Below are positions 60,192 to 64,000 of a stretch of DNA of 64,000 bases, in pieces. The notes under the pieces were generated by a model. The model saw nothing but the letters and a program-made list of their open reading frames with translations, searched no databases and was not told where the DNA came from. Origin of the DNA: an uncultured Elusimicrobia bacterium. Lineage in GTDB: Bacteria > Elusimicrobiota > Endomicrobiia > DTEH01. The stretch spans positions 10,647 to 74,646 of the forward strand of contig CAZDUB010000006.1 in NCBI GenBank assembly GCA_964508565.1, written 5' to 3'. The position numbers and the translations under genes were made by a program. Each line of letters opens with the position of its first letter. Position 1 is the first letter of the stretch.

Positions 60192-61077
60192 AAATTTTAG
60201 AAATCTAATAACTAAATTTAAATTATATTTAATGGCAGAACAAAATGTGTCTCCTAATACGACCATTGCTTATATAGGAGATATAACAGAATTTTTTTGG
60301 TTTGTTTTTAGTAAACTGAAAATTAAAGAAGTTGAACTTGTTAACAAAGTAGTAGTAAGAAGTTTCATATCTTACTTACAAGATTTAAATTATGAAAAAT
60401 CATCAATTATAAGAAAAGTAAATAGTTTAAAAACATTTTTTAGATTTTTGATTAGAAAAAAGATCATTCAATTTAACCCAGTTTTATATATAAGCAACAT
60501 AAAGAAAGCACAACGGCTACCCACCTTTCTTACTAAAGAAGAAATAGAAAATTTGTTTTCTTTAATAGAACCTAAAGATTTTGCTTCAGCAAGGGATAGA
60601 GCATTGTTAGAGCTTTTTTATTCTTCAGGGTTGCGAATTTCCGAAGTTGCCCAACTTACAGAAGATGATATAGATTTATATGAGGGGTTAGTTACAGTAA
60701 AAGGAAAAGGAAATAAAGAACGGATTGTACCTGTAGGAGATATAGCTTTAAAGTATCTTAGGGAATATATGAGATATAAACACAAATTAGTAAATGCTGA
60801 AAAATATTTGTTTTTAAATAAGTTTGGACAAAGATTAAGTGTACGTGGCATAAGAAAAGTAGTATCTAAATGGATTAAAAAAGCGGCAATACACAAGAAA
60901 GTAACCCCACATACATTTAGACATACTTTTGCAACTCACTTATTAGAAGCAGGTTGTGATTTAAGAAGTATCCAAGAGATGTTAGGACACCAGAGTTTGT
61001 CCACTACAAATATATATACGCATTTAACCATAGAGAGATTAAAAAAAATATATCAAGAAGTCCACCCAAGAAAATGA
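60127..61077 (+). CDS. xerC: Tyrosine recombinase XerC/XerD family
   Basis: SGLRISE, GKGNKER, PHTFRHTFATH, LGHQSLSTTNIYTH (R-K-H-R-H-Y intact). Confidence 0.88.
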   Translation: MKNQELKQNQLQITQIFQKLPENFRNLITKFKLYLMAEQNVSPNTTIAYIGDITEFFWFVFSKLKIKEVELVNKVVVRSFISYLQDLNYEKSSIIRKVNSLKTFFRFLIRKKIIQFNPVLYISNIKKAQRLPTFLTKEEIENLFSLIEPKDFASARDRALLELFYSSGLRISEVAQLTEDDIDLYEGLVTVKGKGNKERIVPVGDIALKYLREYMRYKHKLVNAEKYLFLNKFGQRLSVRGIRKVVSKWIKKAAIHKKVTPHTFRHTFATHLLEAGCDLRSIQEMLGHQSLSTTNIYTHLTIERLKKIYQEVHPRK

Positions 61078-61817
61078 AAACCAATTACAAAGTATTAAAA
61101 TATAAATTGGCTATAAATAACAGGCATTTATACTCTTGCGGTTTTATTTTGTTAAATAGCAAAACTAAAAGTGTTGAAAGAATATGTTGTGTTGTTTCAT
61201 ATAATCCCGCAATATTTGAGGTGGATGTTAAACAAGATATTGATAAAATAGAAACAATTGTTTACAAATCTAAATTTGACGAAGGTTGTTGTTCAGAACT
61301 GACTCGAAAACTATATGTGTCATTTCATAATTTAGAAGAAAAGATATCTTCTGTTATTGAGAATGAATCAGAAGAAGCAATAAAAAATTTATTAATAGAA
61401 TCTTTAAATATAGATGATAGACAAAACATAAGGTTTGAATATTCTGTTGAAAATCTAAAATATAATATAGAAGATACTTCTGATTATTCTAGAATAGAAA
61501 CCGACGCAAACAAATTTAGTAGTAATAAATTTTTCATTAAAGCAAAACCAGTTATTGAAAATAAAAAGGGAGTAAGTATAGAAAAACTTAAGTTAAAAAA
61601 TGAGATATTGTGTGAGTTGACAGATAATAGAGAAATAGTAAAATATATAATGAGAATTTTGTTTGCGAAAGATAAAGATGAAAAAAGATTCTATGCAAGA
61701 ATAATAGAAATAAATAAAAAAAATGAACGGTATTATGAAATAATATGCTCTCTTACTCCTATAATTCTTACAAAAATAATAGTAGAAAAAACTAAAAAAT
61801 TAGTGGTAAAAAAATAA
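61074..61817 (+). CDS. Hypothetical protein (247 aa)
   Basis: Long ORF overlapping xerC by ATGA and ending 1 nt before the next ATG; no motif recognised. Confidence 0.75.
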   Translation: MKTNYKVLKYKLAINNRHLYSCGFILLNSKTKSVERICCVVSYNPAIFEVDVKQDIDKIETIVYKSKFDEGCCSELTRKLYVSFHNLEEKISSVIENESEEAIKNLLIESLNIDDRQNIRFEYSVENLKYNIEDTSDYSRIETDANKFSSNKFFIKAKPVIENKKGVSIEKLKLKNEILCELTDNREIVKYIMRILFAKDKDEKRFYARIIEINKKNERYYEIICSLTPIILTKIIVEKTKKLVVKK

Positions 61818-61818
61818 C

Positions 61819-64000
61819 ATGAATGATGAAAAAGATATAGAATTAAACGATTTGGATAAAGAGATTTATCAAGCAGAAAGAGAAATTTCACAATCAACTG
61901 TTAATTTTTTAAGGAACAAAATTGCACAACAAAAAGAACAATTTGAAAAGTTTAGTATAGCTAAGCAGAAAGAAATACAAGAATTACAGGAAAAGTTAAA
62001 AAATACTGAGGAAGCTTTAAAACAAACTCAAGCATTGTTAGAGAGATATCAACAATCAGAATTAGAAAATTTAAAAAAAGCAGCTGAAGAGCTACAAAGA
62101 CAAAAAGAGAAGGAAATGCAACGGTGGAAAATGATTGAAGAGGAGATTAAAAAATTCAAAGAAATTTCTTATTCTTCAGAACTAAGATTGAAAGAAGAAA
62201 TAAAAAGGTATCAAGAATTAAAACAACTATATGAAGAAAAAGTGAAGGAATGGGAAAATAAGTTCCTCCAGTTAGAAGTAGAACTACAAAATTATAAAGA
62301 ATTGTTATCCAAAAAAGAAGAAGAAATAATAAAGATTAACGAGGTAAAAAATAACGAAATTTCACAATTAAATCAAGAAATAGAAAAATTAAGAAAACAA
62401 ATTATTGACGAAAAAAGGACTTATGAACAAAGGATAAATGAAGCAAACGACACAATTAAAGAATTACAAGAAAGTTTAAACCAAGTATTGTTAAAGCAAC
62501 AACATTGGAAATTAGAAGCAGAGAAATATAAAGAATATTTACAAGAAAAAACTTTACAGATTGAACAGTATGAATTAAATATGAAACATTTGAAAGAAGA
62601 AGCAGAAGCTAAATATAGACAATATGAAGAACAGATAAACAAATATAAACAACAAATAGAATCACAATCAGTTGCTTTCCAAAATGAGAAAAAACAATTC
62701 CAAGACAGTTATGAAACAGAAATTGGTAAATTGAAATACGAGTTAGCAGAAGAAAGGAAGATAACTCACGAATTAACAAACATAAATAAAAACTTAGAAC
62801 AACAACTATTACAAAAAGAGGAACAAATTCAGAAACTTAAAAATGAACTAAAAAGTTTTGAAGCAGTAAAATTACAAGAATTTAAACAATTAAACGATAA
62901 AATTTCTTATTTAAATCAGGAAAACGAAAAGTTAATTTTAGAATTAAATCAGATAAAGCATAATTATGAAGAAGAACATAAATTAAGAATGATTATTGAA
63001 CAAAAACTTGATAACATAATAGCTGAAAAAAACAGACTTATTGAACAACTAAACAAAGATATAGAAGTTTGGAAGCATACACTTGAAGAAGAAAAGACTA
63101 AGGCAGAACAAAGGATAAATGCATTGATTGAGAGGTACGAAAATATTGTATCGTCTAGGAATGAAGAAATTAAAAAATTGCAGCAAGAGCTGATTGTTTT
63201 AGAAAACGAATATAATGAATTAAGAAAAATCTATCAAGAAACAAAGATAAATAATCAACACTCGCAAGCATCTGTTGATTATTTAGAAAAAAAAGTTGAA
63301 GAATTAAACAACCAACTACAAACAGAACGTGATAGATTCGCTGAAATTTTATCTTCCGAAAGGGCAAGTTGGGAAGAGAGAAGTAAGAAATATAATGAAG
63401 AATTGGAAAAAATTAAAATGGAGTATGAAGAAAAAATTAATTTTATGAAAAAAACAGAGGAAGGGCTGTTAAATGAGATAAAAAATTTAGATGTGGAATA
63501 CAAAAAATTATTAATTGTTAAAAACGATTTAGAAGAGAAAATAAAAAGCCTTTATGATGAAAATGAAAGTTTAAAACAAGCATTGGAATCTAAAACAAAT
63601 GAATATATAAAAAAATTAGAAGAACAAAAAATTTATTATGAAGAGAACATCAAGAAGTTAAACTCACAAATAGAGAAATTACAAAATGATTATTCTAATC
63701 TTCAAGTTCAAAAGAACAATGAGATATCAAATTTAATCTCACAATATGAAGAAAAAATTAAACAAATAGAAGAAAATTTTGCACAACAGTATAATAATTT
63801 TAATTCAGAAAGAAATGAACTTTTGAAAAAAATAGATGCTCTATCGTTAAAGATACAAGAATTAAATAGAGAAAAAGAAATATTATTGAATATAAAAAAC
63901 GAAAATGAAAAAATAATTAACGATTTGAAAGTAGAAATGAAAAAACAAATAGAACAAAAAAATAAAGAAATAGAAAATCTAAACCTACTTATTGATGAGG
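61819..64000 (+). CDS. Very long coiled-coil protein, 3'-truncated by the window edge; not in the ORF track
   Basis: Hand translation from ATG 61819 gives 727 sense codons with no stop; E/K/Q/N/L/I-rich, zero Pro, zero Cys, two Gly. Confidence 0.92.
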   Translation, partial: MNDEKDIELNDLDKEIYQAEREISQSTVNFLRNKIAQQKEQFEKFSIAKQKEIQELQEKLKNTEEALKQTQALLERYQQSELENLKKAAEELQRQKEKEMQRWKMIEEEIKKFKEISYSSELRLKEEIKRYQELKQLYEEKVKEWENKFLQLEVELQNYKELLSKKEEEIIKINEVKNNEISQLNQEIEKLRKQIIDEKRTYEQRINEANDTIKELQESLNQVLLKQQHWKLEAEKYKEYLQEKTLQIEQYELNMKHLKEEAEAKYRQYEEQINKYKQQIESQSVAFQNEKKQFQDSYETEIGKLKYELAEERKITHELTNINKNLEQQLLQKEEQIQKLKNELKSFEAVKLQEFKQLNDKISYLNQENEKLILELNQIKHNYEEEHKLRMIIEQKLDNIIAEKNRLIEQLNKDIEVWKHTLEEEKTKAEQRINALIERYENIVSSRNEEIKKLQQELIVLENEYNELRKIYQETKINNQHSQASVDYLEKKVEELNNQLQTERDRFAEILSSERASWEERSKKYNEELEKIKMEYEEKINFMKKTEEGLLNEIKNLDVEYKKLLIVKNDLEEKIKSLYDENESLKQALESKTNEYIKKLEEQKIYYEENIKKLNSQIEKLQNDYSNLQVQKNNEISNLISQYEEKIKQIEENFAQQYNNFNSERNELLKKIDALSLKIQELNREKEILLNIKNENEKIINDLKVEMKKQIEQKNKEIENLNLLIDE

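Follow-up and report, generated by a model that had tools for sequence, protein, structure and literature searches.

The coiled-coil gene and its product

The DNA analyzed here (hereafter the window) is a stretch of 64,000 nucleotides from the assembly of an uncultured Elusimicrobia bacterium (GCA_964508565.1, here G000; positions G000:C6:10647-74646), and we focus on the gene at its downstream end, which encodes a very long coiled coil. The assembly comprises 1.65 Mb in 80 contigs, with ~30% GC and a completeness of 88%; the single public run listed as holding this DNA is a hot-springs metagenome, possibly its source, and no RNA run is among the holders. The gene (61819..64000, + strand) starts with an ATG at 61819 and its frame stays open through 63999, i.e., for 727 codons up to the window edge. 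Its continuation on the contig reaches a TAA at the window-equivalent positions 64291-64293, giving a product of 824 amino acids (aa), so that the window holds the first 727 of 824 codons; the gene ends at G000:C6:74939, 293 nt past the window. The ATG is located 1 nt past the TAA of the upstream gene, and the TAA of the coiled-coil gene overlaps the ATG of polA (TAATG).

The complete product (100.5 kDa, pI 5.35, net charge -25) has no Pro, no Cys, and only two Gly residues (G303 and G549), and its other residue counts include E 157, K 120, L 102, Q 81, N 76, and I 73. Its composition is that of a coiled coil from residue ~10, and no transmembrane or signal segment was found along the 824 residues (maximum Kyte-Doolittle 19-residue mean of 0.29). 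The ~30% GC of the genome reduces the use of the G+C-rich Pro and Gly codons but is no help to long open frames, stop codons being A+T-rich. A Pfam scan gave no family at E<=0.01, and NCBIfam returned only sub-threshold matches to SMC arms (32 bits for TIGR02168, with a cut-off of 567). The earlier note on this DNA, made from the part of the gene inside the window, had described more than 727 residues of coiled coil with no Pro, no Cys, no N-terminal head, only two Gly, no Walker A motif, and no signal or transmembrane segment, and all of this holds over the full length. It had also left room for a known family in the remainder of the gene; once retrieved and searched for domains, residues 728-824 proved to be further coiled coil, domain-free and matching no known family.

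The hydrophobic residues recur every 3.5–3.6 residues (power at z = 15–19 above shuffles), and the resulting seam is phase-coherent across all 824 residues, with a period of 3.56 that is common to all family members. The power of this peak, 9.3, compares with 0.9 for residue shuffles and 2.7 (maximum 6.6) for shuffles in blocks of 20–40 residues, 0/300 of which reached 9.3. Unrelated giant coiled coils of related genomes are equally coherent, so that coherence is a mark of long continuous rods generally and not special to the 824-aa protein. When the heptad register was tracked on the family profile, it broke up into 18 segments with 17 discontinuities, mostly stutters (+4) and one-residue skips. 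The term "uninterrupted" used in the earlier note is, therefore, true of the helix, but not of a strict heptad register.

Core position a is occupied by Ile (29%) or Leu (22%) and position d by Leu (38%). Ile/Leu at a together with Leu at d is the classic parallel-dimer pattern by coiled-coil core rules, from which we infer a parallel two-stranded rod; judging from these core positions, the protein is very probably dimeric. The computed length of the rod, if extended, is ~120 nm at 0.1485 nm per residue. An AlphaFold2 (AF2) monomer model, with a predicted local distance difference test score (pLDDT) of 68, places helices at residues 12-276, 314-511, 517-702, and 744-819, separated by low-confidence breaks at 277-313, 512-516, and 703-743. 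The last break is treated as a limit of monomer modeling, since this region is among the best-conserved blocks of the protein. Searching the ESM Atlas retrieved generic coiled-coil clusters only, with structural TM-scores by query all <0.2, and no internal sequence repeats were detected in the 824-aa protein.

A small family restricted to part of the Endomicrobiia

The coiled-coil gene is real and conserved. All nine other genomes of the same bacterial family match it (9/9), eight of them with intact orthologues of 816–831 aa that show 39–60% identity and a nearly gap-free alignment, and the gene order xerC, ~250-aa unknown protein, coiled coil, polA was found at all same-family loci. The ninth orthologue (G006:C3:3700-5920) is seemingly broken near residues ~700-776, where a 745-aa open reading frame (ORF) is accompanied by a separate match to the last 46 residues, with a frameshift, a deletion, and an assembly error as candidate causes. 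Such comparative data nearly rule out that the gene is a mobile or phage-derived structural protein, a defense component (Lamassu/SMC-like), or a chance open frame of AT-rich DNA. One very weak LmuB match (E 0.002, 14 bits) would point to a defense component, and ~30% GC does lower Pro and Gly codons, though without favoring long open frames; however, all 9/9 other family genomes carry the orthologue at one fixed place in the chromosome, its length and motifs being conserved, PADLOC found no significant defense family for the 824-aa protein, and phage or transposon genes are absent around the gene. We consider these origins extremely improbable and close to refuted.

An exhaustive profile search among 1.84 billion representatives found 39 proteins at E<=1e-10, ~30 of which (590–900 aa) are N-terminally anchored, aligning their own N-terminus to that of the query. 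Pfam detected in ten remote family members no domain, nor any fused domain hinting at function. Profile residues 564-730 matched the N-termini of some 800–1200-aa proteins, generic repetitive surface coiled coils (Flg_new, Big_2) that were set aside as composition matches. Across a sample of 301 Elusimicrobiota genomes, the family is present only in the bacterial family of the window (9/9) and in five other Endomicrobiia families, and was not found in 89 Endomicrobiaceae nor in ~190 genomes of other Elusimicrobiota classes. It is, in short, a small unnamed family restricted to non-Endomicrobiaceae Endomicrobiia, without a Pfam or NCBIfam model. A second long coiled-coil ORF of G000 (C1:252661-254511, - strand; L049:6665-8512), encoding 616 aa with 2 Pro and 3 Gly, is unrelated (hhalign probability 0.6%).

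Members from other Endomicrobiia families include proteins of ~600 aa. The ~825-aa group aligned to four of these ~600-aa proteins by hhalign with a probability of 99.85% (E 1.2e-30), colinear over residues 3-523 vs. 8-537, and both forms carry the motifs KW..IE.E.K.F, SR..EI..L..EL, ELR.IY..K.EN, and ER..W. Given this colinear homology, the ~825-aa form consists of a common ~525-residue core plus a family-specific extension.

Conservation along the rod is uneven, with blocks at residues 85-140, 225-252, 365-476, and 701-812 in which conservation includes the solvent-exposed b, c, and f positions (0.7–0.85). Residues 85-140 (62071..62238, +) form the most conserved block (K-W..IE.EIK.FKEIS...LKEE), with 78–79% conservation at its surface (b, c, f) positions and including W103, the sole residue invariant across all 29 aligned family members; we regard this block as a candidate partner-binding patch. 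Solvent-exposed positions reach their top conservation (0.85) at residues 225-252 (62491..62574, +). Family-wide motifs are again concentrated at residues 421-525 (63079..63393, +), where the region homologous to the ~600-aa relatives ends, namely SR..EI..L..EL, with the nearly invariant R447 and E450, ELR.IY..TK.EN, and ER..W. Within the extension specific to the bacterial family of the window, residues 533-700 (63415..63918, +) make up a poorly conserved spacer (surface conservation 0.44–0.54), followed by a C-terminal module confined to the ~825-aa form (residues 701-812, LLIDEERKKK..IEIAQ..., surface conservation 0.67–0.80), which starts at 63919..64000 (+) and runs past the window.

A rod-only coiled coil of constant length (816–831 aa) under clear purifying selection could be a free-standing, self-assembling cytoskeletal filament protein, similar to intermediate filaments (IF), that would shape or stiffen the cell or organize the cytoplasm independently of MotAB and FliG. 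The retention of the gene in genomes without detectable FliG (see below) and its predicted co-transcription with housekeeping genes, based on the 1-nt spacing and the overlap, are in favor of this explanation. However, the conserved exposed patches together with a variable spacer are at least as well explained by a tether that binds a partner as by a homopolymer, and a family that searches of 89 Endomicrobiaceae and ~190 genomes of other classes did not find does not determine cell shape across the group in general. Considering also the comparison with crescentin given at the end, we find this filament explanation rather doubtful.

Gene neighborhoods, stators, and FliG-like genes

The contexts of the relatives, some of them taken from metagenome contigs found by a family-alignment scan, place the coiled-coil gene beside flagellar-type motor genes in some lineages. 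It adjoins MotA-MotB-MotB in three lineages, in two of which there is also a FliF_C/FliG-like fusion. G016 contains the array TPR, FliF_C/FliG_M/FliG_C fusion, MotA, MotB, MotB, coiled coil (CC604), response regulator/GAF/histidine kinase, small ORF, and polA, while G039 has LarC, MotA, MotB, MotB, and, after 9 nt, CC599 followed by a response regulator/GAF/histidine kinase. At G010 and metagenome contig L075, a TPR and a FliG-like gene precede a MotB<-MotB<-MotA block that diverges from the coiled-coil gene, itself followed by TrxB and polA. Other loci are arranged as LarB-LarC-CC716-TrxB-polA-coaE (L076), LarC-CC709-GalK-GalE-polA (L079), and Xer-type recombinase-CC894-radical SAM-DsbD (L077/L080). 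The backbone order is LarC-[MotA-MotB-MotB]-CC-...-polA, with the stator block at the site in some lineages and absent in others. In three lineages (L045, L076, and L079) the gene for LarC, a nickel insertion protein, comes before the coiled-coil gene or before the MotA-MotB-MotB-coiled coil block, an arrangement that points to a fixed backbone into which the stator block was inserted or from which it was lost. The gene of the window itself, located between xerC/unk247 and polA, is not beside FliF_C/FliG-MotA-MotB as its relatives in G016, G039, G010, and L075 are.

Co-occurrence was counted over 41 Endomicrobiia genomes, 16 positive and 25 negative for the coiled coil. MotB_plug was present in 16/16 of the positive genomes (this one included) vs. 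5/25 of the negative ones, and FliG_C in 13/16 vs. 3/25. Every rod-bearing genome has a flagellar-type stator, while a FliG-like gene was not found in each. The MotA proteins belong to the flagellar MotA/PomA/MotP type and not to TolQ/ExbB, and neither FlhA nor flagellin was found in the five genomes searched. Homologues of motAB, flbD, and fliG have been reported, unexplained, in free-living, non-flagellated Elusimicrobiota (preprint 10.1101/2022.07.08.499144), the only publication that our literature search found on an Elusimicrobia coiled-coil or FliG-like non-flagellar system.

Two kinds of stator are distributed among these genomes. G000 and G008 have only the second type, MotA280/MotB217 (91% and 84% identical in G001 and G008), G004 and G009 only the type associated to the FliG cluster, and G001 both. 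In G000 the MotA (280 aa)/MotB (217 aa) pair is located at G000:C6:114262-115764 (L050:6263-7762), ~40 kb past the window end, after WaaA and three GT9 heptosyltransferases and before an extracytoplasmic function (ECF) sigma factor, and in NCBIfam it matches MotP/PomA/MotA and MotB/MotS best, with scores below cut-off. The G000 assembly contains no FliG, FlhA, or flagellin, and both FliG regions of its congener G001 are missing from it; as G000 is 88% complete, the lack of FliG clusters could be a loss or an assembly gap.

Some further arrangements around the FliG-like genes were observed. Congeners (L059 = G001:C36:9000-26000; L060 = G003:C1:37000-54000) carry a TPR protein (554 aa), a FliG_M/FliG_C+TPR protein (631 aa), and two coiled coils of 1616 and 899 aa; this module was not found in G000, and its coiled coils have no match to the 824-aa query. 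Past the window, G000:C6:92561-101352 encodes a 2397-aa Pro/Gly-rich giant protein and then a 531-aa TPR-like protein. The orthologous pair of G009 (L062, C35) lies directly upstream of a FliG-MotA-MotB-MotB-kinase cluster, which is not at that site in G000.

The immediate surroundings of the gene, dprA-topA-xerC-unk247-coiled coil-polA-coaE, raise a different possibility, namely a chromosome- or DNA-associated coiled coil acting in segregation, nucleoid tethering, or as a replication-repair scaffold. The tight overlaps that all members of the bacterial family of the window show with xerC/unk247 upstream and with polA downstream, and the proximity to polA kept in most relatives, would agree with it. 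However, the dprA-topA-xerC-unk300 block occurs class-wide, also where the coiled-coil gene is absent, and TrxB, GalK/GalE, or a histidine kinase stand between the gene and polA in other families. Moreover, the protein is acidic (pI 5.35, net charge -25), carries neither a DNA-binding nor an ATPase domain, and went undetected in most of the phylum, though chromosome segregation is needed by all these bacteria. We judge a DNA-associated role quite improbable. The best interpretation of the xerC/polA context is that two conserved blocks meet there in a family-specific way, which is no evidence for a role in DNA transactions.

The upstream gene (61074..61817, +) belongs to the first of these blocks. 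Its 247-aa product, which matches nothing in Pfam or NCBIfam, occurs in 39/41 Endomicrobiia genomes, among them Endomicrobiaceae without the coiled-coil gene, and comes after dprA-topA-xerC at each of the four other-family loci that were inspected (f2, f4, f5, and f9). The 247-aa protein is part of a class-wide housekeeping block; being independent of the coiled-coil gene, it was rejected as a dedicated partner of the coiled coil.

Interpretation and comparison with known systems

The reading that we favor overall, with a probability of around 40%, is that of a lineage-specific ~120-nm parallel coiled-coil scaffold or tether, a former neighbor of an orphan stator/FliG-like cluster that was relocated and lengthened. 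The product would be a cytoplasmic protein of ~100 kDa, with an alpha-helical coiled coil predicted over residues ~12-819, assembled as a parallel two-stranded rod of ~120 nm. As no enzymatic, nucleotide-binding, or membrane domain is present, its role would be structural, and a scaffold is, from sequence features, the rather likely form of it. A scaffold or tether is suggested by the layout, which combines the N-terminal half conserved family-wide, with its exposed patches, a variable spacer (~533-700), and the C-terminal module of the ~825-aa form. The likeliest partner would be an orphan ion-driven stator or rotor-like envelope machine, for which the rod might act as the cytoplasmic platform or spacer, considering the adjacency to the stator in three lineages and to the FliF-C/FliG fusion in two, with neither FlhA nor flagellin found. 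In the bacterial family of the window, the gene would have been separated from the stator cluster, lengthened by ~220 residues, and placed between xerC-unk247 and polA.

Several observations weigh against this scenario. Adjacency to MotAB is limited to three related lineages, with only one tight gap (9 nt); at L076 and L079 the coiled-coil gene comes directly after LarC without MotAB, and the context at L077/L080 is different again. The most widely kept neighbor is polA, often with unrelated genes in between, and this proximity looks like inherited synteny and not like a functional operon. The bacterial family of the window keeps a FliF_C/FliG-MotA254-MotB-MotB-HAMP kinase-amidase cluster elsewhere in the genome, without the coiled-coil gene, the break falling precisely at the junction of motB2 with the coiled-coil gene. 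No FliG-like gene was detected, by family or protein search, in G000 (88% complete) or G008 (95% complete), where the coiled-coil gene is intact. The co-occurrence counts are confounded by kinship, since the negative genomes are mostly reduced, host-associated Endomicrobiaceae. Finally, the confidence of the AF2 monomer is low (pLDDT 68), and Foldseek searches of the PDB retrieved generic helical hairpins only (p85 iSH2, SMC arms), none at E<=0.001.

Taking all this into account, the link of the coiled coil to MotAB/FliG, suggested by gene order and co-occurrence, is a tentative one that we consider doubtful. A more specific version, in which non-flagellated Elusimicrobiota have an undescribed ion-driven machine derived from the flagellum, and the protein is its cytoplasmic rod (a flagellar-type MotAB stator, with or without a membrane-anchored FliF/FliG fusion) and couples or spaces the stator to a cytoplasmic target, appears unlikely. 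If it were true, the rod would have been lengthened to ~120 nm and retained with the stator despite the loss of the FliG-like rotor, so that stator and rod would be a working unit without the rotor. A conserved rod-shaped partner would then give a concrete handle on the function of the orphan motAB/fliG machine. Should the link prove false, the protein would still be a clean candidate for a novel element of the bacterial cytoskeleton, from a phylum whose cell biology has hardly been studied. Either way, the family has a narrow range, a constant length, and surface patches that are conserved, and ancestrally its gene lay next to those for a flagellar-type stator and a FliG-like protein.

Among the known systems, SMC/Rad50/MukB proteins show weak similarity in NCBIfam and Foldseek, in segments of the coiled-coil arm. 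However, the 824-aa protein has no ATPase head halves, hinge, or Walker A, a motif (GxxxxGK[ST]) excluded by the presence of just two Gly in the whole protein, and Pfam found neither SMC_N nor AAA. With arm matches at 32 bits against a cut-off of 567, SMC identity is excluded, in agreement with the earlier note.

The same note had proposed an intermediate-filament or crescentin-like cytoskeletal or tether protein. Crescentin (CreS) and IF-like proteins do resemble ours in being cytoplasmic, nucleotide-independent, and almost wholly heptad coiled coil with stutters, and the best PDB profile matches, although weak, were crescentin (8afl; E 7e-5, 24 bits), lamin (23 bits), and vimentin (20 bits), which would favor the filament explanation. 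These values are, however, at the noise level of generic coiled coils, with no single significant stretch for crescentin or vimentin and one short stretch of ~72 residues for lamin. The 824-aa protein does not match PF00038 (Filament) at E<=0.01, and the tripartite IF build was not recognized in it, the helix being predicted over residues 12-819 of 824, and head, tail, and Pro- or Gly-rich linkers all being absent (2 Gly). It is twice as long as crescentin, headless and tailless, without demonstrable homology, and confined to part of one Elusimicrobiota class. Membership of the crescentin/IF family is not supported, which also speaks against the filament explanation, while a cytoskeletal or tether protein remains the most sensible class.

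Scy and FilP of Streptomyces are likewise long, domain-poor bacterial coiled coils with a mean periodicity >3.5. They have a 51-residue repeat, corresponding to 51/14 = 3.64 residues per turn, whereas the 3.56 period of the 824-aa protein corresponds to heptads with a stutter roughly every 30–50 residues. Its power at 3.64 is at background and there is no autocorrelation peak at lag 51, so that membership of this group is not supported either.

The two remaining systems are analogous rather than related. In the Zorya defense system, the cytoplasmic tail of ZorA is a long coiled coil on a MotA-like 5:2 motor, and this possible parallel of a very long coiled coil extending into the cytoplasm from a MotAB-type stator is the one suggested by the gene order of our family; nevertheless, the coil is fused to ZorA there and a separate gene here, PADLOC found no match, and the neighbors in the relatives are FliG-like and kinase genes, not ZorC/ZorD. 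AglZ of Myxococcus xanthus is the coiled-coil platform of the Agl-Glt gliding motor, which uses the MotAB/TolQR-like AglRQS. It may offer a comparable case of a long cytoplasmic coiled coil with functional or genomic ties to a proton motor of the non-flagellar MotA/MotB type. A receiver domain forms the N-terminus of AglZ, whereas the 824-aa protein has no Response_reg or any other domain and no sequence homology to it was found, and the stator linkage of our family consists of gene neighborhood in some relatives only.

The 824-aa protein is a member of an unnamed family within a known kind, the long coiled-coil proteins with structural roles in bacteria. No class of bacterial structural proteins is less annotated than that of the long coiled coils without domains, and crescentin, Scy/FilP, AglZ, and the ZorA tail each revealed, once characterized, a new piece of cell organization.

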